From: a virus
Virus record (IMG/VR): IMGVR_UViG_3300032092_000004
Location: 1 to 64,000 of that record
Length of the DNA: 64,000 nucleotides
Direction: 5' to 3' (one strand)
In this document: positions 16,550 to 61,848 of the stretch, one piece after another
How positions within the stretch are numbered: position 1 is the first letter of the stretch
Layout of the letters: each line of letters starts with the position of its first letter
Made by a program: the position numbers and the translations under genes
Notes under the pieces: generated by a model
What the model saw: the letters and a program-made list of their open reading frames with translations, nothing else
Databases searched by the model: none
What the model was told of the DNA's origin: nothing

Positions 16550-16873
16550 ATGCCTTTTCAATATTGGAATAGATATACGAATTTTTTAATCAATGGAGAA
16601 CAAACTGTTGTACCATTTGTGCCAGTACCCGCAAAAACCTCAGATAAAAATTATATTTTTATTGTAGGTCAATCAAGATTAGATAAAGTTTCACAACAAT
16701 TTTATGCGTCACCCTACTTTGGTTGGTTAATAATGGCTGCAAATCCCCAATATTCAGGTAATGAATACTCAATACCTGATGGTGCAGTATTGACAATTCC
16801 ATATCCGTTAGTAGCTTCTTTACAAGACTATAAAAACGCATTAGAAAATTACTTCTTCTACTATGGCAGATAA
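16550..16873 (+). CDS. Baseplate wedge gp53 / LysM-like (tail X-type) protein
   Basis: SRLDKVSQQFYASPYFGWLIMAANP...IPDGAVLTIP. Confidence 0.8.
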   Translation: MPFQYWNRYTNFLINGEQTVVPFVPVPAKTSDKNYIFIVGQSRLDKVSQQFYASPYFGWLIMAANPQYSGNEYSIPDGAVLTIPYPLVASLQDYKNALENYFFYYGR

Positions 16874-28019: not shown

Positions 28020-28469
28020 ATGAAAGAACAGGATATTACCAAAGTTGAATTTTTGTTAATGTGTAACGATAACATTGTGGTTCAGAGATTCTTTAATGTT
28101 AGAAACTTTAATAAAAATGCTCACAAATCTGAGGATTTTTATTATCACATTGAGAGTATTTGTGATGAGTTAAAATACGATCTTAAAATGAGATCTCTAA
28201 CTTATATGTTGGACAACCAATATGAAATTTCAGAAAATCCAGATGTATTAAATACATCAATTACGGACGGTCCGGAAAATTTTAATCTAATAATTAAGCT
28301 CGGAGACATGACAATTTGTCAGCGTGAGTTTGATGCTAAAGTATACCCCCCAAAGGTAAGATACACCGTAGACCTACGCCCAAAGTTAAAAAACATCCTC
28401 TCATCACTTACTGACATTTTTTCAGGTAAAAATTTTAATTATTTTTATCCTGAATTTATCAAAAACTAA
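28020..28469 (+). CDS. Hypothetical protein in the replication operon
   Basis: 149-aa ORF tightly packed between the exonuclease and helicase; no recognised motif. Confidence 0.75.
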   Translation: MKEQDITKVEFLLMCNDNIVVQRFFNVRNFNKNAHKSEDFYYHIESICDELKYDLKMRSLTYMLDNQYEISENPDVLNTSITDGPENFNLIIKLGDMTICQREFDAKVYPPKVRYTVDLRPKLKNILSSLTDIFSGKNFNYFYPEFIKN

Positions 28470-28503
28470 TACTATTTATTTTTACTAAAGAAGAGAAAAC
28501 TAT

Positions 28504-29886: not shown

Positions 29887-29908
29887 CAAAACAAGTAAAT
29901 TTATAAAA

Positions 29909-30856: not shown

Positions 30857-30866
30857 TTTTTAGAAT

Positions 30867-41345: not shown

Positions 41346-43138
41346 TGACAGTAGATCCATCAACAAGAATAATAGAATCAACGCAAAGGTATAAATCAGC
41401 ACCAAAAGTTGATCAATTTATAAACATACCATTTGCTCAAACTTCAAAAGATTTAATTGAGTATGATAGAAGTGTTGATTTGAATTTGGCAACTGTCTTT
41501 GATGAAGAAAGACAAGCATCCACAATATTCAGACCTGTTACAAAATTCACAGTTTTATTTGAAAATGCGTATACGGGATCAACAAAATATGTCCCATACA
41601 GAGATAATTTGTATTATACTAATGAATTAAATAATGCTATTCTATATTATCCAGCGGGAAATTTTGGACCAAATCCATCAACAGTTCAAACAGTTCCATG
41701 GACAGGATTTCCACAATATTCTGAATTTGATTTTATAAGAACGGATAATGATGTTATTGGTTATACTCAACCACCAAACAATCATTTAAATTTTAAAAAT
41801 GTAAGTGCAACAACTTATAATTGGAGTCATTATTTAAGTTATGCTTTTACAAATGATTATAATAAAAATTTATTTGCCGTCGAACCTAATACTTCTATTA
41901 ATTGGTCTTGGGTTGCGTCAGATGGTTTACCATATTATATAATGGTGGGTAATGATTTAAACGGTCTAAATATAAAATTTAAGTGTCCTGTAGAACACGG
42001 TTTACAAGTAGGTGAGTTTGTTTTATTATCAACTAATTACAACGGAACAGTAATGTTCCAAGTCTCAAGTTTAGGTGATCCTGGTGACGGATCCGACGCA
42101 TTCATTTTTAACATTAAAAACATTGGTTATACAGGAACTACATTTCAAACAAACTCACAAGGTACATTCAAAAGAGTCATAAATGCCGCTAATTCTGCGG
42201 ATACAATAAGTGAGTATTACGTTAGAAAACATAAGATATTAACCAATCAAGAATGTTCAGTTTTAGTAAATGCTGGATTTGAAAGAAATATTTATGGTGA
42301 CAAAAGAAAATGTGAGGCAAAAGTCCTAACACCAAATAATAAAGCGAGAGTTTCAACAAAAGAAGGAAACAGATCATACACCCTTTCGTTTAACTGTGAT
42401 ATTGATATACAACCATTGAGAGATAATCAAGGCAGACCTTTGAGTGAATTATTTTTTACATCAATTTGGAGGGGATATTTTGGGTGGACAAAAGATCTTA
42501 AACAAGGATGGTACTTCAATACATTCTTAGAAGATAAAAAACCACAATCATGGTGGGATGACAACAATATTAACTCAAACGTAATCGTTAATCAAAATAG
42601 TTATGTTTCATTGTTAGGATCGGGACCTTTTTTTTATAATGATTTTTTACAATCTGGTGATACAATAGACGGTGATTATTGTGAATGGAATAATTATGAA
42701 CAATTTGAAAGAGTTATATCTTTATATCAACATAAAATAAAATATAACCAATCATGGTTTACACTTTATAATGAATTTATACCAACAAACCAACCTGGTT
42801 ATTTTTATCAACCACACAGTGCAATACAGATTGCTGCTTTCTCCGACTATATAGAGGAAGGTAGTTCGTCAAACGTTGTTGGTATTCCTGATTACGCTTA
42901 CTACTCTACTATGGCCGCATTATTCAGATGGAGAGATAAATATCCTTATGGATTCATCGATACTGATGGTATTGGTGTTGATTATCCATTTTTAAACAAT
43001 GCTCATTACCCTTATAAAAATACAATTTTTAGAATTACTCCTGAATTATATAATATACCAAACGATTATGCAATTTCAGGTTCGGTTCCATTGAACATAA
43101 CAACAATAGCAGAACCAACGACAGATGAATGCGAATAG
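41342..43138 (+). CDS. Putative structural protein
   Basis: Overlaps the upstream stop codon; beta-rich composition; HGLQVGEFVLL beta-barrel motif common in phage tail proteins. Confidence 0.6.
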   Translation: MMTVDPSTRIIESTQRYKSAPKVDQFINIPFAQTSKDLIEYDRSVDLNLATVFDEERQASTIFRPVTKFTVLFENAYTGSTKYVPYRDNLYYTNELNNAILYYPAGNFGPNPSTVQTVPWTGFPQYSEFDFIRTDNDVIGYTQPPNNHLNFKNVSATTYNWSHYLSYAFTNDYNKNLFAVEPNTSINWSWVASDGLPYYIMVGNDLNGLNIKFKCPVEHGLQVGEFVLLSTNYNGTVMFQVSSLGDPGDGSDAFIFNIKNIGYTGTTFQTNSQGTFKRVINAANSADTISEYYVRKHKILTNQECSVLVNAGFERNIYGDKRKCEAKVLTPNNKARVSTKEGNRSYTLSFNCDIDIQPLRDNQGRPLSELFFTSIWRGYFGWTKDLKQGWYFNTFLEDKKPQSWWDDNNINSNVIVNQNSYVSLLGSGPFFYNDFLQSGDTIDGDYCEWNNYEQFERVISLYQHKIKYNQSWFTLYNEFIPTNQPGYFYQPHSAIQIAAFSDYIEEGSSSNVVGIPDYAYYSTMAALFRWRDKYPYGFIDTDGIGVDYPFLNNAHYPYKNTIFRITPELYNIPNDYAISGSVPLNITTIAEPTTDECE

Positions 43139-43928
43139 AATAAAAATATTAAAAACCGAACTTGAACAGTTTGTTAATATACCAATTAACATGCAATGGG
43201 ATTTTACGGGAAAAGACGATGCTATTGATGAATATGAAGTAAGTGTTATTGATCAAGTTATTGGTCCTGCCGCGGACTTTGAAATTGCAAGATTTTCACA
43301 TAACGTATTCCAAAACCAAGATACAGGAATTAATTATGAATTTTATTTTTATGATGATTCGCAACCAATAACCGCAAATACTGTTGGTAACTGGACCATC
43401 TCATATTTAAATAACGGGTTTACAGCTGAAGAAATTTACTACTATTCAAAACCATTCACTAAATCCTTCTTCAAATTGGATTTTTATGACACTGCTGATG
43501 AAAGAGATCAACAAATTTATTTATCGGTAATTTTACCTGTACAACAAGGGTTAACTCAAACTGTTGTGATATCACCTTTAGTTCCACCTGTCGATATTAA
43601 AAAACCAAAAATGGTTTTAGATTATTTAGGTGATAAAGAAGGATTTTTTATTTATTGGTTAAGAAGCAGAGATTTTATAGATGTTGACACCTTTTATGTT
43701 ACCGCAAAATTTTTTGATGCTAGATTAGGAGTTTTCAAACAAATGACTAACACAAGACAAGATCTAATATCACCAACCAAATTTACTTTTAATAATGCAG
43801 ACTATTTCTATTATAGATATAGTTTAAATTATACTACTAAAACTTACGAGGTATTCTCCACTTCAACAAACTTAAGAGTTGGGGACGGATTATCACCGAT
43901 AAAATGGTATGAATATGTTAATCCATAA
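43125..43928 (+). CDS. Putative structural protein
   Basis: Overlapping ORF in the baseplate operon; aromatic-rich. Confidence 0.55.
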   Translation: MNANRIKILKTELEQFVNIPINMQWDFTGKDDAIDEYEVSVIDQVIGPAADFEIARFSHNVFQNQDTGINYEFYFYDDSQPITANTVGNWTISYLNNGFTAEEIYYYSKPFTKSFFKLDFYDTADERDQQIYLSVILPVQQGLTQTVVISPLVPPVDIKKPKMVLDYLGDKEGFFIYWLRSRDFIDVDTFYVTAKFFDARLGVFKQMTNTRQDLISPTKFTFNNADYFYYRYSLNYTTKTYEVFSTSTNLRVGDGLSPIKWYEYVNP

Positions 43929-45103
43929 TGGAATTACAACAATATAATTTCATAATTTCTCCTGAAAACATCAAGAGTGATTTGGTATTTGTTCCTTATA
44001 CAGGGGAAACAGATATAACAACAATCATAGATCCTTGTTGTTTAACGGCATCAACATTTAGTGCGACAACAACAGGAACGACCGGAGTTTACTTACCAAT
44101 GGAGTATGTATTATCGGGGAATACAGGAGGTACATCATTTCTGACTGGATTAACAGTCAATCTGATGTTTACAGAATCAACAGTGGATATTGGGTATTAT
44201 TCACCAACGGATGGTTTAATTTTACAACTTGATGTTTTAAATAATTTTATTGCAACCGCAAATACCATCAATCCATATACTTTCACATTTTATAACACTT
44301 CTGACTTAGAACTAATAAAATTCTTACAATTAGTAACTTATACTTTGGATTGGGGTGATGGATCCGCACCACAGGCTGTTTTAGGTATTTCACCGATAAC
44401 TCATACATATCCTGTTAGTCAAACATCATACACAATAACCCTTACGGCAAATTCCCCATGGGGTATCTCAAAAGTACAAAAAGATGTTATTGTACCTTAT
44501 ACAAACGCAACAATACCAAATCCAAACGGATCTATAACTTTTTATCCTGCGGGAGGTAATTGGTCTGCAACACCAATAAGTTATGATTATATTTTTACAG
44601 GAGACTCAAATACGAACATAAATGATTATTATTCCTACAATTACACTTCGGTTCCATTTCCAATAACAGGTTTAACCTTATCTTCTGTTAACGACTTAGC
44701 ACAATTTGGACCCAAAACAAATTTATACGACGGTAAATTTAAATTAGGAGTCCAAGTAACGGGAACAACAGGTGCGATTGGAACATATTGGGGACCAGAT
44801 CCAAGTAACTCATATACAGCTTATACCATAAATGGTATGACTTATTTAGATTACGAAGATTATACGATTTATGTTACAGATTCTTACGGTTTAGTTCCTG
44901 GTGACATCGTATTATCGGCATTAACAAAAAACGAAGCATTATTAAATGTTATTGATCAACCTGAAATTATAACTAATGTTTATGTTGAGAGAGGTAAATA
45001 CACACCATTAGAAAATATACAAAGGATTGGTGAAGTTGATAATGTAGGGGACTTAGAAAAATACGGATACAAATATTTCAACATTGAAAAAGTATCAACA
45101 TAA
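43928..45103 (+). CDS. PKD-domain structural protein
   Basis: YTLDWGDGS...ITHTY...YTITLTANSPWG PKD signature. Confidence 0.75.
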   Translation: MELQQYNFIISPENIKSDLVFVPYTGETDITTIIDPCCLTASTFSATTTGTTGVYLPMEYVLSGNTGGTSFLTGLTVNLMFTESTVDIGYYSPTDGLILQLDVLNNFIATANTINPYTFTFYNTSDLELIKFLQLVTYTLDWGDGSAPQAVLGISPITHTYPVSQTSYTITLTANSPWGISKVQKDVIVPYTNATIPNPNGSITFYPAGGNWSATPISYDYIFTGDSNTNINDYYSYNYTSVPFPITGLTLSSVNDLAQFGPKTNLYDGKFKLGVQVTGTTGAIGTYWGPDPSNSYTAYTINGMTYLDYEDYTIYVTDSYGLVPGDIVLSALTKNEALLNVIDQPEIITNVYVERGKYTPLENIQRIGEVDNVGDLEKYGYKYFNIEKVST

Positions 45104-45130
45104 CTATTTATAAAAAAAAAGAAAACACAA

Positions 45131-46036
45131 ATGGCTACAGGTAATTACGGAACTATTAGACCAGCGGATGTCAGTCCTGAAGACGTAGAGATCGTTATGG
45201 TTTATACACAATCAAGAGATGACACACAAAACTTTATTTTAACAACGTTGAACGCTCAAGATGTCTTAAGACCATACTTCAATAATAACGCAACAGGAGG
45301 TAATACTGTTGAAGTTTTAGGTGGGTTGTATAGTTTAAAACTACCTGCCGATCAGTTTACAAGTTTGGGGATTTACACTCTAATGATTAGACCTGCACAA
45401 ATTAGAACAACTATTACTGATTGTGGTGTTTTATCCGCATTACCAAATGTTAAAGGGATAGTAATTGATTTAAATAATGTCCCATCACAATATAGAAATA
45501 AGTTTGTTAATCAAGGACTTGTAGGATTTAGAGTTGAATACTTAAATCCTGATGGGACAAAAATTCCTAACTTCTTTAGAATAATAACATCTTCATTCTA
45601 TTGTGAACCAGTTATCCAAAACTTAACTAACACAATTCAAAAGTCTATTAGGTATAGATATGTGGAAGGGGCAACAAATCTTTTATTTTGTACACTTTCA
45701 CCATCTTCATCACCAACAAACAAACCAAGTGCAACACCTTATATTGGACAACCTAATCAAAGTATTATCATAAGTAATACTTATTTTAACCCAATATCAA
45801 CAGAAATTGAAATAGTTGACCAAGACATCTCGACGTTGGCAATAGCACTTTATGGCAATCAAACTAAATCTATTGAGGACGGTATTTACACAATCTACGA
45901 CGCTGACAACAACATCTACCAACAATACAACTTGTATGAAATTAAAGATCAGTTCAATACTCTTCTTTATGAGGTTAGACAAAATCGTAATGAAAATATC
46001 GATTTCTCTAAAGCTTTTAATAATATTGTTGCTTAA
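45131..46036 (+). CDS. Putative baseplate/structural protein
   Basis: TATTTATA upstream (45105); coupled to the gp7-like gene. Confidence 0.55.
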   Translation: MATGNYGTIRPADVSPEDVEIVMVYTQSRDDTQNFILTTLNAQDVLRPYFNNNATGGNTVEVLGGLYSLKLPADQFTSLGIYTLMIRPAQIRTTITDCGVLSALPNVKGIVIDLNNVPSQYRNKFVNQGLVGFRVEYLNPDGTKIPNFFRIITSSFYCEPVIQNLTNTIQKSIRYRYVEGATNLLFCTLSPSSSPTNKPSATPYIGQPNQSIIISNTYFNPISTEIEIVDQDISTLAIALYGNQTKSIEDGIYTIYDADNNIYQQYNLYEIKDQFNTLLYEVRQNRNENIDFSKAFNNIVA

Positions 46037-49023
46037 TGGCTATACAGAAGTTTACTTGTCCACCTCAAAGTAGTGCCGCCAATGAATTCTCAAATAATTT
46101 GGTTGGAGTTCAGTTAGTTACTGGAGGAGGTTTAACGCAAGCAAATTTTAACTTTACAACAAATATTTCTGAAAAGCAGAATAGAACATTTAATATTGGT
46201 ACGTTTTCAGATCCGATAAATCTTGAGAGTATAAACATCGATAATAATGTTGAAGCTGCCGAAATCTTAGCTAACAACTATAGAGTTTACCCAAATTATG
46301 ATTTATCACAAGTAACAAACTTTACTCAATATGGTTCCTTGGTTAAAAGATTTTCAGTTTCAATAACTAAGATAATCAACTTTTATCCTGCAGGATTAGA
46401 GGTTTCACCAAACACAAACAAGTTTATAACTCAAGAAACCGCATTTAATATTACTTACGATGCGGTTGAAAATGATACAACATTTGAAGTATTAATATCA
46501 TCAATTAGAAATCCATTTGATATTGATTACACTGTAAATGCTGAGACAAATATGATGTTTAATGAGATGGAAGTTTCATCTTTGAGAAACATGAAGTTGG
46601 AGTATAAAAAATATGCGTTAATTCTAAATGGTAATGAATATCCTGTTAACTATTTATACCCAACCACAAATGACTCGACAACATTAAAGTTAATTGTCGA
46701 TGGAAATCCATTTGGGGGTAATGCAATATCATATGATTATATAGTTATAAGACCAAACAACTATGAGGTTAACAGAGTTTTTAACCTTAAATTTGATCCC
46801 GTTGAAAATTTCCTACTAAATAGAAACATTAATCCACCATATACCGCAACTTTTACCGTTCCAAGAGAACAAGATGACGGTACATTTAAAATCACGACTG
46901 AACTTGCAACGTTTCCTAAATCAGGACTTTGGAACTTAGATATTGAATCACAAACATTTGATAACTACCTAACACAAATAAATGATTTTGCAATAAACCT
47001 TGATTCATATAATACTAACTTAGTTTCAAGATTTTTAACAACAGGTGCTTTAAAAGAGTTTGATACACCTGATCATAAATTTGAAAAACTTTTACAGATT
47101 TATGGTAGAAGTTTTGACGAAACTAAGGCTTTCATTTCGGCATTAGGTAATATTAATAGTGTTCATTATACTGTTAAGAATGATATACCGTCACAACTTT
47201 TAAAAAATTTAGCACAAACATTAGGTTGGGTAACAAATTTTTCACCTATATCTAATGAAGAATTGTTACAAGCAGTTTTTACGACACAACCAAATACTTT
47301 TCCTGGTTTACAAATCGGACCAACACCTGAAGAAATCAATTATCAATTTTATAGAAATTTGATTTTGAATTCTGCTTGGTTGTTTAAATCAAAAGGAACT
47401 AGAAAATCTATTGAATGTCTTTTAAGAATGGTTGGGGCACCTGAAGCCTTAATAGATTTTAACGAACATATTTATGTTGCTGATCAAAGAATAAACATGA
47501 GTGAGTTCAATCAACAATATTTACAATTATCAGGAGGGACTTTTCTACAAGAATATCCTGTATTAGAAACTAACAACACATATTCAATACAAGGAGTTCA
47601 ATATACTGGTTTTACCACAACATTTGCAAACGCAACTGTATTAACAACAAGGGAAGATTACCCCGTTGATGAATTTGGATGCCCAAAAATGCCAACACCA
47701 ACAGAAGAGTACTTTTTCCAAATTGGTGGGGGTTGGTTTGAATCAACACCTCAACACAGAATGCCAGAATTTGCAATCCCAACAAATCAAGTATTCACAG
47801 GTAATAATCCTAATTTCCAAACACAACTTTTACCTTTCAATTACGGTGAGGAATATTTGCAACTTTACAGAAATTTCCCTTATATGAATTTGGGGTATAA
47901 GATTAGAAGAGTTCAGGATAACAAAAAAAGTTGGAGTGATACGTCACCAACACAAAGAGTAAGTTTTGATGGTGGATTTAATGCTTATTATGAAGTTGGT
48001 GAAGAATGTTTAACATTGAATGTGAAAAATGTTGACATCATGATGAATCCTGCTCAAGGTTTGGTTTATGATGTTTGGACAATGTCTAGACAATATAATT
48101 ACCCAATACCTGAAGAAGGTTTATTCTACACTCCACCAACACCTTGTAATGTACCAAATCCATACCCAAGATATGGAGGAATAGATTGGACAACAATTAT
48201 TCCAAAACCAAAACAAAAAACTTTCTTTGAATTTGCTCAAACATTTTGGAGAAACATGGTTAACACAAGAAACCGTCAATATATTACTGATGGTAAAACT
48301 GGCGGTTACCCTACATTACAATCAATATATTGGAGATACTTAGAGTCTCAAACACAAGCAGGTGTACCAAACGATAATTTTACATACCAAACAATGATAG
48401 ACTATATTAATGGTATGGGTGACTATTGGATTAGAATGGTTGAACAAATGGTTCCTGCAACTACAATATGGAATACAGGTGTTAGATTAGAAAACTCTAT
48501 ATTCCATAGACAAAAATTTGTATGGAGAAGACAAGAAGGATGTAAGATTGTTCCTGTCCCTTGTAAACCTTGTTCTTTGGCAACACAATTGTTTGTATAT
48601 GATTGTCCTGTACAACAAGTGGTTTGTGGTCTTTATCCATGGAATAGTAACCCAACAATCACATCTATGGGTGCTGTATTGAATGATACTTTAGATACTT
48701 TTTATAGTCAAAATTCATTAAACGCAAATGACTGTTCACAAAACTCTGTCATAACTACTTGGAATGTAGATTTAAGAGTAAATGGGGTTATACTTGTGAT
48801 ATCACCATTCTATACAGGTATTGGACCATTTAACGTCCCTACTAACACAGAATGGGTGAATGCTTTAAGTGACACATTAAATAATTTACTAACCTCAGGG
48901 TATAGTTATAATATTGATGAGGATACTGAACAAATAACGGTGTTTAACAATAATTGTCAACCAAATTTTGATGACTTCCAAATAAACATAGGACTTGAGT
49001 TCGAAATATATTGTAACGGATAA
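46036..49023 (+). CDS. Baseplate wedge protein (T4 gp7 / P2 gpI-like)
   Basis: IPSQLLKNLAQTLGW...LILNSAWLFKSKGTRKSIECLLRMVG...MVEQMVPATT. Confidence 0.7.
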   Translation: MAIQKFTCPPQSSAANEFSNNLVGVQLVTGGGLTQANFNFTTNISEKQNRTFNIGTFSDPINLESINIDNNVEAAEILANNYRVYPNYDLSQVTNFTQYGSLVKRFSVSITKIINFYPAGLEVSPNTNKFITQETAFNITYDAVENDTTFEVLISSIRNPFDIDYTVNAETNMMFNEMEVSSLRNMKLEYKKYALILNGNEYPVNYLYPTTNDSTTLKLIVDGNPFGGNAISYDYIVIRPNNYEVNRVFNLKFDPVENFLLNRNINPPYTATFTVPREQDDGTFKITTELATFPKSGLWNLDIESQTFDNYLTQINDFAINLDSYNTNLVSRFLTTGALKEFDTPDHKFEKLLQIYGRSFDETKAFISALGNINSVHYTVKNDIPSQLLKNLAQTLGWVTNFSPISNEELLQAVFTTQPNTFPGLQIGPTPEEINYQFYRNLILNSAWLFKSKGTRKSIECLLRMVGAPEALIDFNEHIYVADQRINMSEFNQQYLQLSGGTFLQEYPVLETNNTYSIQGVQYTGFTTTFANATVLTTREDYPVDEFGCPKMPTPTEEYFFQIGGGWFESTPQHRMPEFAIPTNQVFTGNNPNFQTQLLPFNYGEEYLQLYRNFPYMNLGYKIRRVQDNKKSWSDTSPTQRVSFDGGFNAYYEVGEECLTLNVKNVDIMMNPAQGLVYDVWTMSRQYNYPIPEEGLFYTPPTPCNVPNPYPRYGGIDWTTIIPKPKQKTFFEFAQTFWRNMVNTRNRQYITDGKTGGYPTLQSIYWRYLESQTQAGVPNDNFTYQTMIDYINGMGDYWIRMVEQMVPATTIWNTGVRLENSIFHRQKFVWRRQEGCKIVPVPCKPCSLATQLFVYDCPVQQVVCGLYPWNSNPTITSMGAVLNDTLDTFYSQNSLNANDCSQNSVITTWNVDLRVNGVILVISPFYTGIGPFNVPTNTEWVNALSDTLNNLLTSGYSYNIDEDTEQITVFNNNCQPNFDDFQINIGLEFEIYCNG

Positions 49024-51215
49024 TGCCTTATATACAAATATATAATTATAGAGTCACTGGTGACTGTAGTAATACAAAAGTAGGTGCGGTCTCATTCAAC
49101 ATAACCGGAGATACGCCTAATTTTAGTGTCACAGATGCAACAGGGTTAGGATTACTACCATTGTCAGCTAACACCACATTTTATTCTGTTACGGGAATGT
49201 CTGGTGGTACTTATTATGCTACAGTTGCAGATGCGGGTACCACAAAAATTGTACAACCAATTTATATATCAACAGGTACTACCGCAACTATAGATTCTTC
49301 TAATACCACTTGTGGTCAAAATAATGGAACAATAACAGGTTTTACGTCTGGCGTTTATGGTCTTGTTTCTTTTAGTTTATACGATATAAGTAATAATTTA
49401 ATTACATCTGCAACAACATCAAATCCTTACTATGAATTCACATCTCTTTCTGCAGGAACTTATTATATAGTTGCAAACGATGGTGGTGGTTGTACAGGAA
49501 TAACAGCATCTGTAATATTAAATCCTTCATCTGGATTAACATACGGGGCATATGTTGTTGATGATGCTAGTTGTTTAGGTTCAGGTAGTGGTAAAATTTT
49601 CTTAACAGGATTAACACCTCCATTATCTGCTTATACAATAACTTGGAGTCCTAACGCTTTAGGTCAAACAGGATCAACAATAACAGGATTAACTTCGGGA
49701 AGTTACGTTGCAACAGTAACAAATCCAATTGGATGTACAACAAGTGAATCATTTACTGTTAACACTATACCACCATTAACGTCAGGTGGATTTATAACTA
49801 TAGCCCAACCATCTTGTTTTGCGAATGACGGTGAAGTAGAATTTATTGTGGTTGGTGGAACTGCTCCCTATTTTTTCAGCGGATCATCAGGTCAAGTTGA
49901 AATTACTTTTGATACTTCTGTAACATTTACAGGACTGTCTTCAGGTTTATATTCGTTTTTGGTTACCGATGCTGGTTTATGTACAATTTATGATTCAGTA
50001 AGTTTATTAACACCAAATTCATTTAGTACCGTTGCCGTCACAACAACTAATTCAACTTGTTCGGCAAATGATGGTAGCATTAATGTTTTAGTTGATGGTG
50101 GTCTTAGTAGTGCAACTAATTTACAGATCTCTGTGTCAGGAACTACAGGTATTAGTCAAATAGGATTATTCGGTAGTTCTAATGAGACATTCTATGGATT
50201 AGGTAGTGGAACATATAATGTAACAGTTGTGTCTGCAGGTTGTACTTATACCGCCTCTACTGTTATTAATTCGGTTAGTTTATATAGTGCGACTACTCAA
50301 GTAAATGGTACCACATGTGGATTAAATAATGGATCTTTAGTTGTAAGTGCGTCAACAGGAGGAACATTTCCATACACATATTCATTAACAGGACCAACTT
50401 ATAGTCCAAATACTGTAACAAGTTTATTTAACACATTCACAAATTTAGCTTATGGTAATTACACTCTAACAATACAAGATACGTCATCACCACCTTGTAT
50501 CCAAAGTTATCCTGTTTTTATACCAAATAGTCAGACCGTAAACTTCAACTTATATCCAAACCAACCTTTAAATGGTGATGATGGTTCTATCACTGCATTC
50601 ATTACTAGTGGTGAACCACCGTTTACTTTAACTTGGAGTGGTGGAACCGTAGGTTCTCAAACGGGAACTACAGTTACAGGTTTAACTACGGGTACATATA
50701 GTTTAACTGTAACAGACGCTAGTGGTTGTACACTTACAAAATACACAACATTAACGGGTACAAAAAAATATGTTAATTATTTGTACTATAATGTATGTGA
50801 TGATACTTTTACAGATAGTGGATTGGTAACTAAAAGAACAATTCGATCAATGTATTTAGAAGGGTTTAATGATCTAACTAGTGGTGACACAAACTGTATT
50901 ATAAATTCAGCGACTTTTGCAATAAGTGCGGAAGTTGGTGGTCAATCTGCTGAAACTATATTTTACACATCTTCAGGATCTACTGATTATCCAAATGATT
51001 TGTTATGGGCTGAAGCAATATCTACAATATTAAATGAGTTTGTAGGGATATCTGATGTAACAATAGATCTACCTTCAAATAGAATCACAATAAAAACAAA
51101 CTGTGAAGAAATTAGTAAAAATTGTGGTCCACAAACAATAAATCCATTACAAGATACTGAAATAAAAGTCAACTTGTTGATTGATTATGACATATCTTGT
51201 GTAAGTTGTAGTTAA
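49023..51215 (+). CDS. SprB-repeat (Ig-like) adhesin/fibre protein
   Basis: Tandem units CxxxxGxI...GGTxPYxYS...TGLxxGxYxxTVTDxxGC. Confidence 0.8.
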   Translation: MPYIQIYNYRVTGDCSNTKVGAVSFNITGDTPNFSVTDATGLGLLPLSANTTFYSVTGMSGGTYYATVADAGTTKIVQPIYISTGTTATIDSSNTTCGQNNGTITGFTSGVYGLVSFSLYDISNNLITSATTSNPYYEFTSLSAGTYYIVANDGGGCTGITASVILNPSSGLTYGAYVVDDASCLGSGSGKIFLTGLTPPLSAYTITWSPNALGQTGSTITGLTSGSYVATVTNPIGCTTSESFTVNTIPPLTSGGFITIAQPSCFANDGEVEFIVVGGTAPYFFSGSSGQVEITFDTSVTFTGLSSGLYSFLVTDAGLCTIYDSVSLLTPNSFSTVAVTTTNSTCSANDGSINVLVDGGLSSATNLQISVSGTTGISQIGLFGSSNETFYGLGSGTYNVTVVSAGCTYTASTVINSVSLYSATTQVNGTTCGLNNGSLVVSASTGGTFPYTYSLTGPTYSPNTVTSLFNTFTNLAYGNYTLTIQDTSSPPCIQSYPVFIPNSQTVNFNLYPNQPLNGDDGSITAFITSGEPPFTLTWSGGTVGSQTGTTVTGLTTGTYSLTVTDASGCTLTKYTTLTGTKKYVNYLYYNVCDDTFTDSGLVTKRTIRSMYLEGFNDLTSGDTNCIINSATFAISAEVGGQSAETIFYTSSGSTDYPNDLLWAEAISTILNEFVGISDVTIDLPSNRITIKTNCEEISKNCGPQTINPLQDTEIKVNLLIDYDISCVSCS

Positions 51216-51217
51216 TT

Positions 51218-51514
51218 GTGGCGAATCAAGTAATCGTTTATAGTGCAACAAGTGTTACACCACCATTCAGTGGTATTGCATGTGACGTTTATGGTAATAA
51301 TTGTTCTTATGTTGGTAGTGGAACCACTTATCCTACAACTTTTACTTTACCAGCACAATTCAACACAGCACCTGCATTACAGTTAACTTTAATAGATTCA
51401 ACCGGATGTTCATTATCTGAAATAATTTATTGTACAACTGAAGGGGCCCCAAAACAATTTCAAAATTTACAATATTACTTCTTTATGGATGGAACGCAGT
51501 TTAATTTCCAATAA
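51218..51514 (+). CDS. Small Cys-containing structural protein (paralog of 61850..62071)
   Basis: PPFSGIACDVYGNNCSYVG...FTLP...LIDSTGC; GTG start. Confidence 0.65.
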   Translation: MANQVIVYSATSVTPPFSGIACDVYGNNCSYVGSGTTYPTTFTLPAQFNTAPALQLTLIDSTGCSLSEIIYCTTEGAPKQFQNLQYYFFMDGTQFNFQ

Positions 51515-51535
51515 CTAAAATATTTATTATACGAT

Positions 51536-54199
51536 ATGGCATTATTAACGGATCAAATACAAGCAACTGGAGTTTCTTTAACGGACTTAATTCACATAGT
51601 CATCACCGGTGACACATCTCAAAATCCTGCGGGATCTTCTTATAAAGCAACAATCCAACAAGTGGCTCGAGTAATATCAGGTACAACAGGCACTAGTGGT
51701 ACTTCCGGATCAAGGGGTTCGTCAGGGACAAGTGGTCAAAGTGGGATTGGGTTATTTTTACCATTATCAGGAGGTACGGTTACGGGTAATACAATATTTA
51801 ATGCGGGTTTAAGTGCAATAACAATATCGGCAACAACTTATCAAAACTTACCAAGTGATGTAATAATTATTGACTCAACACAGATCCAATCAGGATTTAC
51901 AGGTGGAGTCTTATTTCAAAGTTCAGCAAGTACGGTAAGTCAAACTACTGGTTTTACTTGGAATAATACAAATAAAAGATTGGGAATTGGGATTAACTCC
52001 CCTCTCTATGATTTAGATGTCAACGGGTCTATCTATCAAAGAACCGGAGAATTATTAATTACATCCACAGGTGGTGTCAACAAAGAAGGACCATTTATTG
52101 CATCAAGTGGTGGTGACGATTTAATCTCCGACAGAAAAATCCAATTAGGAATTTCAGACAATTCAACTGTACCTGTCGGTATTAATATGTTTGTAACTAA
52201 CAATTCATTCCCACCAAGTTACATGAACTTTAGAGTAAACAATGCAGATCTAGTTAGAATGTCTGGTAGTTCTGTTGAAATTAGCGGTCTTACATATACA
52301 AGTGGTATAACCTCAACATCTAAAATCACATTTCCACAGATAACAATTAATAGTGGGTATACAGTTACTGATAATGACTATATGGTTGACGTTACAGGTG
52401 GTACTTTTACTGTAAACTTACCAAGTGCTGTAGGAAGAAAGGGTAGATTATTAGTTATTAAAAATAATGGTGGAGGTGCGGTTACCGTAGATCCATTTGG
52501 TAGTGAAACCATCGATGGAAAATTATTCGTAATTTTAGGAGAAACTAACTCAATACAATTATCAAGTAATGGAACAGAATGGGTTGCTTTGGGGTATAAT
52601 ATCTCAACAGTAAACTCATCAACGGGTGTTTTTGAATTTACAGGTATTACAACCGCATCCCCAACAACATTTAATGTTGCTCCTGTAAAAGGATGGATAG
52701 TAGACGACACAACAAATCCTTTATCACCACAATTATATTATGTTGTGTATACAGGTGGTACAAATACCGCAACTTATGTTACAACAAGTACCGAAACTTG
52801 GATTTATTTAACGAGCGGAGGAACAATTAGTCAATCAAATATTCCTTTAACGGAACAAGAAAGAAGACAAAATATATTTTTAGGTAAATTGGGTCACGCT
52901 AATAAGACATCAATTATTAATTCTTTTTCTCAACCTGACTTTGTTTTATCTCCATTATCACAACTTCGTGATATGTTTACACCAATTAATTTAATTAACG
53001 GTGGAATAACCCCATCACCTAACGGTGTAAATTTAAGTTTTAACACAAGTGCGGAATACCTATATGGTTTAGGTATAAATTTCGCAAACGACATATTAAG
53101 TCCTGATTCGTTATATGTTTCAGGAACCGCTCCTTGTACGTTCCAATATAGAACACAAACAGGTGGAACCGCATCAAACACAACATTTATTGACCCAACA
53201 AAATATGATGTTGGTGGTACTGTAACTTCTATACCAGGAACTAAAGCAACTAACCAAAGAATTTATTTGGTACAAAACGGTGTTTTTAGAGTTCAGTACG
53301 GACAAACAGTTTATTCAACACTAACTCAAGCAGTTGCGGGTATTTCAACAGAACAGTATGTTGAGTTTTCAAACTTTCAAACTAACGGTATTTTAATTGG
53401 TATTTTATCAGTTTTAAGCTCATGTACTGATTTAAGTGATACTTCTAAAGCATTATTTTTCCAAGCCTCAAAATTTGGTGAATCAACAGGGGCCGCTGGT
53501 GGTACACCAACAACAAACTTACAACAAGCATACAACAACTCATCAGAACCTGAAATTTTAACTAACTCAACATTAGGAGCATTTTCAATTAAAAATGGTA
53601 CGGGTAATCCTGACATCTCAACAAATTTGTTTGAAGGTATTGGGTCTTCAGGTGTTTTAACTTCGTCAATCACTGCGAGAGGTGTTATCACGGGGACTAG
53701 CATTAGTACAAATGGTACTATTAGTGGTGGTGCGGTAACAGGTACAACAATGTTGGCATCTACGTTCAATCTTGCTGGATCACAAATAGAATCGGCGTGG
53801 GAATCATATAGTGTATCTTGGACATCGTCAGGTACTAATCCAGTAATTGGTAATGGAACTATAGAAGGTTGGTATAAAGTAATTGGTAAAACATGTTTTG
53901 TTAGAGGAAATATTGTGATGGGGTCAACAACAACATTTGGTACGGGAGAATGGTATGTATCGATGCCGGTTACTGCTGTAAATGCTGATGCCATATTAAT
54001 GACGGTAACTTTATTAGATAATGGTAGTGCTTGGTATAATGCCACAATGGCCGGAGCAAGAGCAGGATTTAACACTAAAGCCCCTATGCAATATGTAAAT
54101 ATTTTAAACGGTACTGCAAATGATGTAAATGCAACTCAACCATTTACTTGGACAACTAGTGATAGATTTGTATGGAACGGAAGTTATGAAATTGCATAG
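51536..54199 (+). CDS. Tail fibre protein with a short G-X-[ST] collagen-like repeat
   Basis: GTTGTSGTSGSRGSSGTSGQSG, FLPLSGGTVTG, RLGIGINSPLYDLDVNG, TVNLPSA...IKN...ETIDG, C-terminal GWYKVIGKTCFVR receptor-binding-like domain. Confidence 0.8.
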   Translation: MALLTDQIQATGVSLTDLIHIVITGDTSQNPAGSSYKATIQQVARVISGTTGTSGTSGSRGSSGTSGQSGIGLFLPLSGGTVTGNTIFNAGLSAITISATTYQNLPSDVIIIDSTQIQSGFTGGVLFQSSASTVSQTTGFTWNNTNKRLGIGINSPLYDLDVNGSIYQRTGELLITSTGGVNKEGPFIASSGGDDLISDRKIQLGISDNSTVPVGINMFVTNNSFPPSYMNFRVNNADLVRMSGSSVEISGLTYTSGITSTSKITFPQITINSGYTVTDNDYMVDVTGGTFTVNLPSAVGRKGRLLVIKNNGGGAVTVDPFGSETIDGKLFVILGETNSIQLSSNGTEWVALGYNISTVNSSTGVFEFTGITTASPTTFNVAPVKGWIVDDTTNPLSPQLYYVVYTGGTNTATYVTTSTETWIYLTSGGTISQSNIPLTEQERRQNIFLGKLGHANKTSIINSFSQPDFVLSPLSQLRDMFTPINLINGGITPSPNGVNLSFNTSAEYLYGLGINFANDILSPDSLYVSGTAPCTFQYRTQTGGTASNTTFIDPTKYDVGGTVTSIPGTKATNQRIYLVQNGVFRVQYGQTVYSTLTQAVAGISTEQYVEFSNFQTNGILIGILSVLSSCTDLSDTSKALFFQASKFGESTGAAGGTPTTNLQQAYNNSSEPEILTNSTLGAFSIKNGTGNPDISTNLFEGIGSSGVLTSSITARGVITGTSISTNGTISGGAVTGTTMLASTFNLAGSQIESAWESYSVSWTSSGTNPVIGNGTIEGWYKVIGKTCFVRGNIVMGSTTTFGTGEWYVSMPVTAVNADAILMTVTLLDNGSAWYNATMAGARAGFNTKAPMQYVNILNGTANDVNATQPFTWTTSDRFVWNGSYEIA

Positions 54200-54253
54200 A
54201 GTTTAAAATTTAAAATTAATTCACTTTACCTTATTTTCATTTAATTTTCCTAT

Positions 54254-55234
54254 ATGGAAAACATATTATTTGTCTCAGCACAACCTGACGTTCCCTACTT
54301 TATATGGCAAATAAAATTGTATGTTCACAATTTTATCGAAAAAGGAATTAACCCAAATCAAATACATGTGGTTTTAGGGTTAGTTAATAATGTGAACACA
54401 CCATCTAAAGAATCAGAACAACTTAAAGAGTTAGGTGTTAATGTTCATTACTTTGTTGATGAAAGATCTAAAAAACATTACATACCAAGTATTAAACCAT
54501 ACCTCATCTCAAAGTGGATCCAATCAAATACTGATTATGGAAAATTATTTTTTCTTCACGATGCTGATATTATTTTTAAAGAACTACCAAGTTTTAATCG
54601 GTTGTTAGACGATGAGGTTAGTTATCTATCTGATACGATAGGTTATATCGGATACAACTATATTATGGATTGTTGTGAGAGATATGAACAACAACACCCC
54701 AATTCAGATAAAGGACAACTTATAAGTGAAATGGCAGATGTAATTGGTGTTGATGTTGAAAAAATTAAACTCAATCAAGAAAATTCAGGTGGAGGACAAT
54801 ACCTAATTAAAAATACAAATTGTGAATTGTGGGATAAAATCTATAGAGACTCCACAAATATGTATAATAAAATGTTGGATTACCAAAAAAGATTCCCAAT
54901 AAATTCAGGTCAAATACAATTTTGGACCGCAGAGATGTGGTCATTATTATGGAATTTATGGTTGTATGGATTTAAAACTAAAGTAACTGAAGAACTTGAT
55001 TTTTCTTGGGCGACAGACACCATAGAAACTTATGAAAAAAAACCAATACTTCATATGGCTGGTGTAACAGATAACCTTAAAACTACAAAATTTTATAAAG
55101 GTGATTACATTAATATAGACCCAATTGTTAAGTTGAGAGATAACCCCAATCATTTTGATTACATAGATAAAAATAGTTCGACAATAAAATATATCGATAA
55201 TATGAAATCTTACATTCAAAAATACAACATATGA
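54254..55234 (+). CDS. GT-A glycosyltransferase resembling plant HPAT/SGT1 protein O-glycosyltransferases (GT95/GT96)
   Basis: PYFIWQIKLYVHNF, YIPSIKPYLISKW, FLHDADIIF (DxD), GGGQYLI, WTAEMWS, ILHMAG. Confidence 0.7.
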   Translation: MENILFVSAQPDVPYFIWQIKLYVHNFIEKGINPNQIHVVLGLVNNVNTPSKESEQLKELGVNVHYFVDERSKKHYIPSIKPYLISKWIQSNTDYGKLFFLHDADIIFKELPSFNRLLDDEVSYLSDTIGYIGYNYIMDCCERYEQQHPNSDKGQLISEMADVIGVDVEKIKLNQENSGGGQYLIKNTNCELWDKIYRDSTNMYNKMLDYQKRFPINSGQIQFWTAEMWSLLWNLWLYGFKTKVTEELDFSWATDTIETYEKKPILHMAGVTDNLKTTKFYKGDYINIDPIVKLRDNPNHFDYIDKNSSTIKYIDNMKSYIQKYNI

Positions 55235-55251
55235 TTATTTATTGTTAATAG

Positions 55252-57327
55252 ATGGTAGAAAATTGTTATATATTATATTCTTGTGACGGAAGTTACAAAC
55301 CGATCATTTCAAACCTTAGTGGGTTAAGCGCTTATTCAACGTCATACATTTCTGTAAATTCTATAGATTCAGTAACAATAGATGAAACTTGTTTTTATGT
55401 GTTAAGTTTAGGTGAAATAGACTGTACACCAACAAACGAAATAACAATTTCAACAGGGATAACATGCAATTGTCAATGTTATTGTTATTTTATAAGATCT
55501 GTGACTCAAACAACTGATGTTACATATGTTAATTGTAATGATGAAATTATTGTTGATACTATCCAAGAGGGATTAACTTACAATATTTGTAGTAAAGTTT
55601 ATCCACAGTTTGACACTCAAGTGCAAATACCAATTAAATTAACTGACATTTGTGTTGATAACCAATGTCCACCAACAATCCCAACTGTAAAACCAACAAA
55701 CGAATGTGATGTTATTACAATATTCCCTATGGGGGTTACTTGTATAACACAACAACCTTCATCAGAAAGAGATTTTGATGGAGCGGTTGAATTAGTTGTA
55801 ACAGGAGGAACGCCACCTTACACTATATTTTGGGAAGTTGGAAGTTTTGCACCAGCACTAACTAATCTTGGAGTTGGTGAATATTCAGCATCTGTTACGG
55901 ATTATTATGGTGATTTTTCGGCATTTACAACTTGTGTTTTAACTGCGGAGACTGTAACATATTCAGGTATGTGTTTTGTATTAACAGGTGTAGTTGAAGA
56001 TCAGTTAGTATATATTAATTCAGAAGTAAAAGGGTTTAAAAATACAAAACCATACTTTGAAATACAATATGGTGTAAATCTTTTGGGTTACGTTTTTTGG
56101 GACCCAAGTTCAGAAAAATGGTTTTTTTGTCAAACGCTAGATTGTCAATTATCCCCATATAACACACTTTTATTACCTGATGGATTATATCCTACAGGAA
56201 CGACAGGTGATTGGCAAGTTATTTCAGACTCACCATATTTAATTGTTGAATCAACAATTGGCAATTGCTCACCACCGGTAATACCTAAAGAAGATTATAC
56301 ACTCTGTGCAACAATAGTTTCAAGGTCAACAAAACCTGGAATCCCAACTATGGCCTCACAAGTAGAACTTGATCCAAGTATTAATATAAATGGAGAACCT
56401 AGTTGGTCTTCATCAACAGGTCAATATGTTGTGTATTGGGATAGTGGATCGACACCATCACAATGGGTTATGACAGGATTTACTAGTCCATCAACATTAG
56501 TTACAAATAATGACCCATCATATCCACCAGTAAGTAATTGGCAAGTTTATGGTGGATATGATATATACAGTGTTGATATTGCTCAAGGATTATGTACTGA
56601 TTCGTACATTGTAGTGGTTTCTGCGGTAGTTAACGACGCTTTATGTGGAAATAATGGTAGTATTACTATTAGTGCTTCTGGAGGAGATGCACCGTACCAA
56701 TACTCAATAGATGGAGGATTATCATATCAACCATCACCAATATTCAGTAATGTTCTTCCAGGGACTTATATAGTATTTGCTAAAGACGTAAATACAACAA
56801 TAGGTTCATTTGGACCTGTGGTGGTTAATAACATCCCAACCACCATTTATAACGTAACGATGAACGTAAATTACAATAATAATACTTTTACGTTAACTGC
56901 ACCATCTTTACCTGTTGGATCTACATTAACTGTTGATGTTGTTATGTCGTCAATATTTAACTATTACCCACAAAGTTTGAGCCCAATACCTTCATATAAT
57001 AATTTTACAACTATTAGTGGTGTTGGACTTATGACAAATACAAATACAACAGTTAATACTTATGCATTAGGTGGACCTTGTAGTGTTCCTGGACCACTAA
57101 ACAATACACAAATTAGTAAAACCTATTTGAACACCTTAACATTAACTAGTGGTCAAGTTGTTACAGGTAGTACTACAAATAGTATCATCAACTTTCCTGC
57201 ATTTGAGTGTTCAAACGCAGTTGGATATTATCAATTATCTATTACAAACGCAATAATAAATAACTGTCAATGTTGTGAGACAAACCTAATTAATTCGGTT
57301 CCACCTGTACCACAATCAGTTTTATAA
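55252..57327 (+). CDS. Cys-rich SprB-repeat structural/adhesin protein
   Basis: DGAVELVVTGGTPPYTIFW...LTNLGVGEYSASVTD and CGNNGSITISASGGDAPYQYSIDGG...FSNVLPGTYIVFAKD; many Cys. Confidence 0.75.
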   Translation: MVENCYILYSCDGSYKPIISNLSGLSAYSTSYISVNSIDSVTIDETCFYVLSLGEIDCTPTNEITISTGITCNCQCYCYFIRSVTQTTDVTYVNCNDEIIVDTIQEGLTYNICSKVYPQFDTQVQIPIKLTDICVDNQCPPTIPTVKPTNECDVITIFPMGVTCITQQPSSERDFDGAVELVVTGGTPPYTIFWEVGSFAPALTNLGVGEYSASVTDYYGDFSAFTTCVLTAETVTYSGMCFVLTGVVEDQLVYINSEVKGFKNTKPYFEIQYGVNLLGYVFWDPSSEKWFFCQTLDCQLSPYNTLLLPDGLYPTGTTGDWQVISDSPYLIVESTIGNCSPPVIPKEDYTLCATIVSRSTKPGIPTMASQVELDPSININGEPSWSSSTGQYVVYWDSGSTPSQWVMTGFTSPSTLVTNNDPSYPPVSNWQVYGGYDIYSVDIAQGLCTDSYIVVVSAVVNDALCGNNGSITISASGGDAPYQYSIDGGLSYQPSPIFSNVLPGTYIVFAKDVNTTIGSFGPVVVNNIPTTIYNVTMNVNYNNNTFTLTAPSLPVGSTLTVDVVMSSIFNYYPQSLSPIPSYNNFTTISGVGLMTNTNTTVNTYALGGPCSVPGPLNNTQISKTYLNTLTLTSGQVVTGSTTNSIINFPAFECSNAVGYYQLSITNAIINNCQCCETNLINSVPPVPQSVL

Positions 57328-60579: not shown

Positions 60580-61848
60580 TTAACAAATTACACCTGAATC
60601 TGTTGCTGTAAAGTTTGGAGAAGAAGATGTTGGAATTGTGATAGAACAAATGTAATCGGATGTGTAACCACCTAACCCACCTAAAGATATCGTTCCATCA
60701 CACTCATAGTAATTATATTTAATTTGACTAACACTATTGTTTTCAACATACCATTTTGTAAGGATACAAGGACTTGATGTTGGAGTTGGTGTTGGTGTTT
60801 GTGTTGGTGAAGGAGTTGGTGTTTGTGTTAAATTAGGAAGACAATCTAAACACGCACCATCTATTCTTGAACCAACTTCAAAAGTTAACGTAATGTCATC
60901 CACACCACTTATGTTTTCAAATAAACCTTCATAAACAACACAACAACCTTGACCATTAATAATTGCGTTATATACGTAACCTTCTTTTGGACTTGTGTTT
61001 CCTGAAACTAATATTAAATCTGAAGAGAAATAATCAAAACCAGTAAAGCAATCTTTAAATTTCTTACTATTAGCACATTGTAATATTTCATTAAATGTGT
61101 TAAATATAACTTCACCACTAAAATTACAAGGTCTTGTTATTTGTGGTGTAGGTGTTGGGGTTGGTGTCATTGTTGGTGTCGGAGAATATGATACCGTAAT
61201 CGCTGACGCACTTATAAAAGATCCACCACATATATTTGTTGATGAAGGTGTTGGAGTTGGTGTAGGTGTTTGAGTTGGTGTTGCCGATATTGAAGGGGAA
61301 GGGGTGACTAAACAATCAAAAATTGCGGTGAAATCAAATGTTGCACACGGATTAACAGTTGTGGTAGTTGTAACACAAATTCCTGTATATGCGACAGTGT
61401 CGTCAAAATCAGGACAATCTGACGTACTTCCAAATGGACCAAACTGATCACATGGGCCACCTAATGTTTGAGACAAACACCATCTTGTTTCACCTGTTGA
61501 GTAAAACATAAAATATCCTGTGGTTTGTCCCGTAAAATAAGATTGACCCAGATATCTTCCTCCTGCTAATTGGTATGTGTCATCATAATTTGTGTCATTC
61601 TCAACACAAAAAAACTGAGGACATGTACAACCTGAAATACCGGTAATAGTTCCTGAAACAACATTATATACATTAATACCATTAGAATAATAAGATGTTA
61701 ATGCTGGTGTTCCAGTACATCCTGAGTTTAAATAAACTACATAACCTATTGTTAATCCGCTACCATAAAGTGTGGTACTCAAAGAACCACCACACGAAAT
61801 ATAAGGATCCGAAGCAGAGGCAAATAAACCTAAATTACTACAAGCCAT
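60580..61848 (-). CDS. Cys-rich, PT-repeat protein; putative virion-surface protein
   Basis: Three (PT)n tracts, a TTTTT tract and many Cys; composition matches the + strand structural proteins. Confidence 0.75.
   Translation of the reverse strand: MACSNLGLFASASDPYISCGGSLSTTLYGSGLTIGYVVYLNSGCTGTPALTSYYSNGINVYNVVSGTITGISGCTCPQFFCVENDTNYDDTYQLAGGRYLGQSYFTGQTTGYFMFYSTGETRWCLSQTLGGPCDQFGPFGSTSDCPDFDDTVAYTGICVTTTTTVNPCATFDFTAIFDCLVTPSPSISATPTQTPTPTPTPSSTNICGGSFISASAITVSYSPTPTMTPTPTPTPQITRPCNFSGEVIFNTFNEILQCANSKKFKDCFTGFDYFSSDLILVSGNTSPKEGYVYNAIINGQGCCVVYEGLFENISGVDDITLTFEVGSRIDGACLDCLPNLTQTPTPSPTQTPTPTPTSSPCILTKWYVENNSVSQIKYNYYECDGTISLGGLGGYTSDYICSITIPTSSSPNFTATDSGVIC

Follow-up and report, generated by a model that had tools for sequence, protein, structure and literature searches.

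Locus and gene content

The stretch of DNA analysed here, hereafter the window, comprises positions 1 to 64,000 of the IMG/VR virus record IMGVR_UViG_3300032092_000004, i.e., the first 64 kb of a viral contig of 153,130 bp. Two elements of the window are treated: a tetrapeptide motif, [ST][GA]x[ST], which recurs in the tail and fibre proteins, and a predicted glycosyltransferase (GT) gene within the fibre cluster (54254; genes and their products are named by their start position in the window). The motif was found to be strongly over-represented in the tail and fibre proteins, and homologues of the enzyme were found beside virion proteins with poly-Thr tracts rather than beside motif-rich ones.

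The window encodes a myovirus tail module (sheath, delta-60 protein, tube, baseplate wedge, and fibre cluster; Table 1), inside which the replication genes from SSB to RNR are located at 25015-33296. The completeness of the contig was estimated at about 49% with CheckV and its relatives are 257-317 kb in length; hence, it probably belongs to a jumbo phage. The SprB and delta-60 repeats of the encoded proteins point to a host that is probably a member of the Bacteroidota. A nucleotide search of a phage collection with the contig returned no match, and no homologue of the 43928 protein was detected among cultured phages.

The 3504 protein scored 551.8 bits over 19 stretches against TIGR02608 (curated cut-off 76.5), and the Pfam SprB model PF13573 (curated cut-off 28 bits) matched both the 49023 protein (E = 4e-15, 55.6 bits) and the 55252 protein (52.1 bits). 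For the 43928 protein, a weak PKD-like Pfam match below the cut-off was obtained (E = 1.2e-4). The 51536 protein matches the PHROG tail fibre families 16641 and 5668 and carries a collagen-like G-x-y run (G-T-S, G-S-R, G-Q-S, and similar) at residues 48-70 (window 51677-51745), which supplies five of its 25 motif sites. The 57354 protein contains (PT)n linkers at residues 191-231 and two poly-Thr runs at residues 627-656.

Table 1. Features of the window, and candidate enzyme/acceptor loci of cultured phages. Motif sites are given as observed vs expected from whole-protein shuffles; aa, amino acids.
Feature	Position	Strand	Length (aa)	Motif sites	Remarks
Tail sheath with large insert	68..3418	+	1116		PHROG and Pfam sheath matches, residues about 833-1114 only
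Delta-60 protein, 19 repeats	3504..7070	+	1188		TIGR02608, E = 4e-170
Tube protein	8035				
Tail protein	16863..23963	+	2366	17 vs 6.5, z = 4.4	
Baseplate wedge protein	33834				
Fibre cluster	35754-59858				
Baseplate/fibre protein	35754..41345	+	1863	13 vs 5.5, z = 3.2	
Tail-module protein	41342..43138	+	598	5 vs 1.4, z = 3.2	moderate enrichment
Tail-module protein	43928..45103	+	391	14 vs 2.1, z = 9.2	strongest motif enrichment
SprB-repeat fibre/adhesin protein	49023..51215	+	730	30 vs 9.5, z = 7.1	motif-rich
Small protein	51218..51514	+	98	3 vs 0.6, z = 3.4	
Tail fibre with tailspike-like central domain	51536..54199	+	887	25 vs 9.7, z = 5.4	motif-rich
Predicted GT-A fold (GT8-like) glycosyltransferase	54254..55234	+	326	0	no motif sites of its own
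SprB-repeat protein	55252..57327	+	691	11 vs 3.3, z = 4.6	motif-rich
Tail protein	57354..59858	+	834	3 vs 2.8	not motif-enriched
(TP)n-linker protein	60580..61848	-	422	8 vs 3.7	moderate enrichment
Candidate enzyme/acceptor loci in cultured phages	L085:9741-11355; L086:6339-7856; L088:6643-7873; L196:1658-3379; L197:1841-3409; L198:944-3373; L200:1910-3460				

Over-representation of the motif in tail and fibre proteins

Motif counts were compared with composition-preserving shuffles of whole proteins unless another null model is named. As a stricter null, residues were shuffled inside local 20-residue windows; in a skeleton-preserving null, G, A, P, C, and the hydrophobic residues were fixed and only polar residues were shuffled. 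With local shuffles, the 24 tail and fibre proteins of the entire contig contained 184 sites vs 80.5 expected (z = 12.8), whereas the motif was depleted in the other 149 open reading frames (ORFs; 29 vs 45.0 expected, z = -2.6). This comparison of structural with non-structural proteins had been proposed in a preliminary description of the DNA, which read the motif as a possible modification sequon dense on virion proteins, and it bore out the uneven distribution claimed there. All tetrapeptides listed in that description for 43928, 49023, 51536, and the sheath insert are present, and the motif is indeed nearly absent from the replication proteins (SSB to RNR, three sites in 2553 residues). 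Its list of further genes held for 16863, 35754, 41342, 55252, and 60580, all with an excess; 57354 has three sites and no enrichment (Table 1). Within several proteins the sites are clustered. The sheath carries 11 sites vs 4.2 expected from shuffles, nine of them in the insert, where (PT)n linkers also occur; ten of the 17 sites of the 16863 protein fall within residues 1143-1345, and those of the 35754 protein are concentrated at residues 901-1072.

The excess is specific to the pattern. Local 20-residue shuffles gave 182 sites vs 78.6 expected (2.3x), and permuting the order of the residue classes in five ways gave patterns that reached only 0.8-1.4x under the same null. With skeleton-preserving shuffles, the excess was 1.8x (137 vs 75.9), every tested protein being positive (z 2.0-4.7), vs 1.04x for the bacterial controls. 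An unbiased scan of reduced-alphabet patterns of three and four residues ranked [ST]-G-x-[ST] first (97 vs 35.5, z = 11.4) and recovered [ST]-A-x-[ST] as independently enriched (40 vs 17.5, z = 6.2); both stayed on top after removal of the SprB and collagen-like proteins. In bacterial SprB proteins, the top patterns of the scan represented beta-strand alternation only. Four S/T-rich non-tail ORFs of the contig showed no excess (six sites vs 10.9 expected). Codon usage at the motif sites equals the background and the signal is therefore at the protein level, by which a DNA-level motif was ruled out. The over-representation is real and specific to the tail and fibre proteins.

The sites have a characteristic sequence context. 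Position -1 is hydrophobic in 57% of them (background 34%) and position +4 in 42%, and position +3 is occupied by Thr 104 times and by Ser 31 times, so that the fuller form of the motif reads hydrophobic-[ST]-[GA]-x-T. Many sites take the form hydrophobic-T-G-L-[ST] followed by G-x-Y-x-V-T-V-x-D, or the form [ST]-G-G-T-x-P-Y. In the repeats, several sites stand at fixed columns beside conserved Gly and Leu (SprB columns 16-19 and 71-74, delta-60 column 27). The hydrophobic flanks suggest an embedded strand/turn context instead of a free loop.

Relatedness and conservation of the motif-rich proteins

The preliminary description had called the motif-rich proteins unrelated. This holds for most of them according to BLAST and hhalign, but 49023 and 55252 share SprB repeats, and the 3504 protein has a paralogue at contig position 91809. 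Within the fibre cluster, hhalign linked three pairs only, i.e., 49023 with 55252 through the SprB region (97.9%), 57354 with 60580 through the (PT)n linkers, and the C-termini of 46036 and 49023; a cryptic common domain behind the motif was excluded on this basis. For 43928, 41342, 51536, and 35754, no relatives were found among the other motif-rich proteins by BLAST or profile-profile comparison. The two paralogous delta-60 proteins (window 3504-7070 and contig 91809-94364) are about 52% identical.

Orthologues from 80 related contigs keep the excess (43928, 5.4x; 41342, 3.7x; 49023, 2.8x; 55252, 2.6x). In the 43928 family, each of 12 of the 14 sites keeps its residue class in 23 or more of the 35 orthologues, and the best one does so in all 35; S and T interchange, G and A interchange, and x varies. 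At about 50% identity, 71-79% of the motif sites are shared between 43928 orthologues vs 15-23% of permuted-pattern sites. In enzyme-positive orthologues of 49023, the corresponding shares are 30-50% vs 14-32%.

Comparison with bacterial repeats and with other phages

The motif is not a generic property of fibre or beta-rich proteins, an explanation that was refuted by all controls. The baseplate, fibre, sheath, capsid, and Ig-like Hoc proteins of T4 contain 38 sites vs about 43 expected, and the fibres of Flavobacterium phage 11b and Stenotrophomonas phage DLP_6 contain 37 vs 29, which is no higher than for permuted patterns. Eleven bacterial SprB-repeat proteins have 66 sites vs 62 expected, and 14 bacterial delta-60 proteins have 38 vs 54. 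T4 shows a bias of its own towards [GA]-[ST]-x-[ST] of about 2-3x (gp34, 16 vs 7.8; Hoc, 10 vs 3.3; gp37, 14 vs 7.8; L082 and L083). Lineage-specific Ser/Thr/Gly patterns in virion proteins are thus not unique to the phage of the window.

The contrast is sharpest within homologous units, a comparison that had likewise been suggested in the preliminary description. The homologous 76-residue SprB unit carries 2.41 motifs per phage unit vs 0.67 per bacterial unit; the Ser/Thr share is 29% vs 20%, and many E/D/K columns are replaced by T/S/N in the phage units. At delta-60 column 27, the motif is formed in 61% of the phage units vs 1% of 69 bacterial units. The 3504 protein repeats Y-S-G-[VIL]-[ST] on a period of 51 residues, with 14 Y[ST]G.[ST] sites. 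It had been claimed that YNG of bacterial delta-60 repeats mostly reads YSG here; this is right for the phage protein (YSG 15 times, YNG twice), but bacterial units carry N or S equally at this position. Since the phage repeats bear the motif and their bacterial homologues do not, the motif is a trait of this lineage that emerged in several families of domains. Together with the site sharing among 43928 orthologues, this upholds the earlier proposal of a convergent, selected accumulation.

The 54254 glycosyltransferase

Sequence searches of Pfam, NCBIfam, and the PDB with the 54254 protein returned no match, and in PHROGs it falls into phrog_4417, a family of unknown function. An exhaustive homologue search yielded 836 cluster representatives. 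In an alignment of 52 diverse homologues, an HDSD consensus of the DxD type was apparent, with D103 nearly invariant and D105 invariant, and long homologues are fused to PF11397 GlcNAc-transferase, O-FucT, GT6, GT2, and F5/8 type C domains. The AlphaFold2 (AF2) model (predicted local distance difference test, pLDDT, 97.5) has a single Rossmann-like GT-A fold, and the leading Foldseek matches were all glycosyltransferases. The earlier assignment as a glycosyltransferase is corroborated by the fold, the DxD-like motif, and the domain fusions; judged from the model, 54254 is a genuine GT-A, GT8-like transferase, the support being at the level of the fold.

Assignment to a Pfam family was attempted for HPAT (hydroxyproline O-arabinosyltransferase, GT95), DUF7164, and GT8, and was rejected as none of the models matches. 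The protein had no Pfam match at E ≤ 10. The GT8 model PF01501 had no match in the genome at E ≤ 0.01, though five control genomes were matched. HPAT (PF23452) was found neither in the protein nor in the genome at E ≤ 10, in a search of unproven sensitivity whose control matched nothing anywhere. Structurally, a Chlorophyta cluster of the ESM Atlas, 99% of it annotated as HPAT, aligned to the 54254 model with a template modelling (TM) score of 0.72 (by query) and a root-mean-square deviation of 4.1 over 291 residues; two viral look-alike Atlas clusters, one identified by features and one by structure, contain HPAT in 10% of their members each.

In the relatives, the enzyme is almost always present at the same position of the fibre cluster. 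One contig (locus L237) was considered as a second enzyme-less relative beside the one described below and was rejected, as the enzyme gene lies further along the contig after an inversion. There (L237 with L287, contig G085), a block of the enzyme, 57354, and 59913 genes is inverted relative to the upstream fibre genes. Elsewhere on the contig of the window, at 138151-144850 and thus outside the window, a GT2-family gene cluster is located, with three genes above the Pfam cut-off and one weaker.

Motif and enzyme in an enzyme-less relative

A 257 kb relative (G002, estimated 100% complete) possesses orthologues of the fibre cluster and has no 54254 homologue by protein or profile search and no GT2 gene above the Pfam cut-off. 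It also has no delta-60 protein, just a 63-residue C-terminal match. Its nearest enzyme-positive relatives share about 80% identity in 43928 and 66-69% in 49023, a divergence from which it follows that the loss of the enzyme was not recent. Even so, its 43928 orthologue contains 11 motif sites vs 2.3 expected (z = 6.0), and ten of the 14 sites are kept.

Conversely, 77 cultured phages encode homologues 30-36% identical to 54254, and in the ten of them that were examined the adjacent virion proteins had 0-2 motif sites, at or below expectation. The neighbours of the homologue in Chryseobacterium phage MA9V-3 likewise showed no motif excess. The proposal of the preliminary description that the motif is the recognition site of the 54254 enzyme is not supported; these observations and the co-occurrence of the enzyme with poly-Thr in 57354 speak against it.

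Poly-Thr tracts as candidate acceptors

In at least eight of the ten cultured phages, the enzyme gene comes immediately after that of a virion protein containing poly-Thr or a Thr-rich stretch, usually at its C-terminal end. These neighbours are the major tail proteins in Lactococcus phage 1706, Enterococcus phage phiFL2A, and Arcanobacterium phage TPWB06; others are gp18 of Clostridium phage phiCTP1, gp069 of Lactobacillus phage Bacchae, gp8 of iLp84, and an Ig-domain protein of SAC12B. In iLp84, the major head protein, encoded one gene further upstream, also ends in poly-Thr. Candidate pairs of enzyme and acceptor that can be tested in culturable phages are thereby named (Table 1). In Enterococcus phage nattely (L195:2235-2494), the DNA that separates the likely capsid gene from the enzyme gene encodes a long poly-Thr stretch in another frame, and in TPWB06 (L196:2214-2420) the major tail protein gene is overlapped at its end by a small ORF for poly-Thr. 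Through frameshifting, both stretches may extend some of the subunits by an acceptor tail.

In the relatives of the contig, T runs of at least five residues are present in 67 of 69 orthologues of 57354 from enzyme-positive loci (44 of 46 unique sequences), in 28 of 42 orthologues of 60580, and in 16 of 53 orthologues of 55252. Such runs are concentrated in these three genes downstream of the enzyme, and none was found in 43928, 41342, 51536, or 35754. The 57354 orthologue of G002, i.e., of a single enzyme-less lineage, lacks both poly-Thr runs, their place being taken by unrelated sequence, and keeps the (PT)n linkers. The linkers therefore look like ordinary linkers, and they were dismissed as acceptors, being retained without the enzyme. 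As poly-Thr lies near the enzyme homologues and is absent from the 57354 orthologue of G002, the enzyme appears to track poly-Thr and not the tetrapeptide.

On this genomic evidence, poly-Thr is more likely than the tetrapeptide to be the acceptor, and the 57354 protein would be the likeliest acceptor of the enzyme. The 54254 enzyme would act on the poly-Thr runs in 57354 and, in relatives, on those in 60580 and 55252. That the runs are glycosylated is inferred from this gene arrangement. In the literature, no report was found of the tetrapeptide motif, nor of the 54254 enzyme family in connection with poly-Thr.

Interpretation of the motif

We regard it as slightly better than an even bet that the motif is an intrinsic structural element and not the recognition site of 54254. 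A Ser/Thr-flanked Gly/Ala turn or bulge would join beta strands in unusually Thr/Ser-rich beta modules, namely the SprB-like, PKD-like, delta-60, and fibre domains. Several observations weigh against this structural interpretation. The AF2 model of 43928, built with 29 orthologues, reached a pLDDT of 39.9; because it was unusable, the strand-turn role was read from the sequence context. Position x is hydrophobic in 34% of the sites, which is at odds with a plain hairpin turn of two residues. If the motif were purely structural, the bacterial homologues of these repeats should have it as well, yet it is missing there, and why this lineage evolved the motif has no explanation in structural terms. 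Furthermore, the distal fibres of G002 show the lowest enrichment seen (1.25x), though it is close to that of the three sisters nearest to G002 that have the enzyme (1.36, 1.45, and 2.29x), and its 49023 orthologue keeps only seven of 30 sites; these values are weakly compatible with relaxed selection after the enzyme was lost. As no more than one lineage without the enzyme was found, both the independence of the motif from the enzyme and the co-loss of poly-Thr rest on n = 1.

That the motif is an O-glycosylation sequon read by 54254 on many tail and fibre proteins appears very improbable. A real GT-A enzyme does lie inside the fibre cluster and is nearly always there in relatives, and the motif is confined to virion tail proteins and depleted elsewhere, including in the S/T-rich non-tail ORFs. 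The free exchange of S with T and of G with A and the variable x would also suit a sequon, as would the weak distal fibre enrichment of G002. These points are outweighed by the 43928 orthologue of G002, which retains the motif without the enzyme, and by the ten phages in which no motif excess accompanies the enzyme homologue and most of which have poly-Thr. Moreover, the motif-richest proteins 43928, 41342, 51536, and 35754 lack poly-Thr and the poly-Thr-bearing 57354 is not enriched in the motif, the hydrophobic flanks suggest that the sites are partly buried, and the sites are conserved by position, as the residues of a fold are. It is quite unlikely that the motif instead serves something else, such as an enzyme of the host, the GT2 cluster (at about 138-145 kb), or adsorption, as a surface element that is repeated and binds glycans. 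Such a recogniser would account for a motif that is lineage-specific and selected, and it would ease the difficulty posed by the motif-poor bacterial counterparts of the phage repeats; on the contig there are three GT2 genes above the cut-off and a weaker fourth, and G002 has none above it. However, G002 keeps the motif in 43928 despite lacking the GT2 cluster too, no result ties the motif to another enzyme or ligand, and the gene content of a contig that is about 49% complete is only partly known. More broadly, it seems unlikely that the tetrapeptide is a true modification sequon at all, whether of 54254, of the GT2 cluster, or of another enzyme, with poly-Thr as a second class of acceptor. 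If it were, phage virion glycosylation would gain its first defined sequon, acquired convergently in at least three domain families with motif-less bacterial homologues.

The remaining explanation dispenses with selection on the motif, which would be a by-product of a shift to Thr/Ser at exposed residues combined with conserved glycines in beta-rich domains. The higher Ser/Thr share of the phage SprB units and their E/D/K columns turned to T/S/N agree with this, and with the skeleton of Gly, Ala, and hydrophobic residues fixed, the excess falls to 1.8x from about 2.4x. Among polar residues, the share of S/T is 0.51 at position -1 and 0.53 at position +2 from Gly vs 0.41 in the background, from which alone about 1.6x would result if the positions were independent. 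Nevertheless, the excess survives the skeleton-preserving shuffles in every protein, reversed and other permuted patterns are much weaker, and the S/T-rich non-tail proteins of the same genome have no excess. In 43928, the positional conservation of the motif sites is also three to five times that of permuted ones, and a pure by-product is judged distinctly improbable. If the motif is structural, it offers a clean case of a lineage-specific signature that can be mistaken for a sequon, and it raises the question of why unrelated fibre modules of one lineage swapped charged surface residues for Thr/Ser around turn glycines.

Comparison with known systems

Virion O-glycosylation has so far been reported for mycobacteriophages (Freeman et al. 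2023, as summarised in PMC12619734). As described in that summary, the GT gene of the phage is located among the structural genes, next to those of virion proteins that have acceptor stretches rich in Ser/Thr, which resembles the arrangement in the window, and the poly-Thr of the Firmicute phages likewise forms C-terminal tails of tail-tube or capsid proteins. In contrast, 54254 belongs to another enzyme family and has no Pfam match, the host is probably a member of the Bacteroidota and not Mycobacterium, and the acceptor candidates are internal poly-Thr runs of tail proteins. The tetrapeptide motif has no counterpart in the system as summarised there. By analogy with the mycobacteriophages, the locus would be a candidate system of this type for the O-glycosylation of virions. 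The unannotated GT-A family phrog_4417 adjoins poly-Thr virion proteins in phages of Firmicutes, in an Arcanobacterium phage, and in this probable Bacteroidota phage, which suggests that virion O-glycosylation may be widespread beyond mycobacteriophages.

Among enzymes, the GT8-type retaining GT-A transferases (glycogenin, LgtC, Skp1 alpha-galactosyltransferase, and GlyE of S. pneumoniae) differ from 54254 in that they share 7-13% identity with it and that the Pfam GT8 model is unmatched. The plant HPAT family may resemble it in fold, to judge from the structural alignment given above; it differs by the missing Pfam HPAT match and by its hydroxyproline-rich acceptor, which is not evident here, though (PT)n linkers exist.

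Ser/Thr-flanked glycine turns, e.g., "..tGL.pGtY.v.V", occur in beta-sandwich repeats of the Ig-like, FN3-like, and SprB types. The phage forms described above, at fixed SprB columns, resemble these turns, but bacterial copies seldom complete the motif and the phage motif is also found outside recognisable repeats. The general O-glycosylation of Bacteroidota uses the sequon D-[ST]-[ALIVMT] and acts in the periplasm on exported proteins, whereas phage virions assemble in the cytoplasm. It is similar in having a short Ser/Thr-centred sequon and in belonging to the phylum of the probable host; the motif itself is another one.

Additional observation in the fibre cluster

The final ~95 residues of the 46036 protein (window 46036-49023) and of the 49023 protein are homologous (hhalign, 94%), which suggests that these adjacent fibre genes share a C-terminal module.

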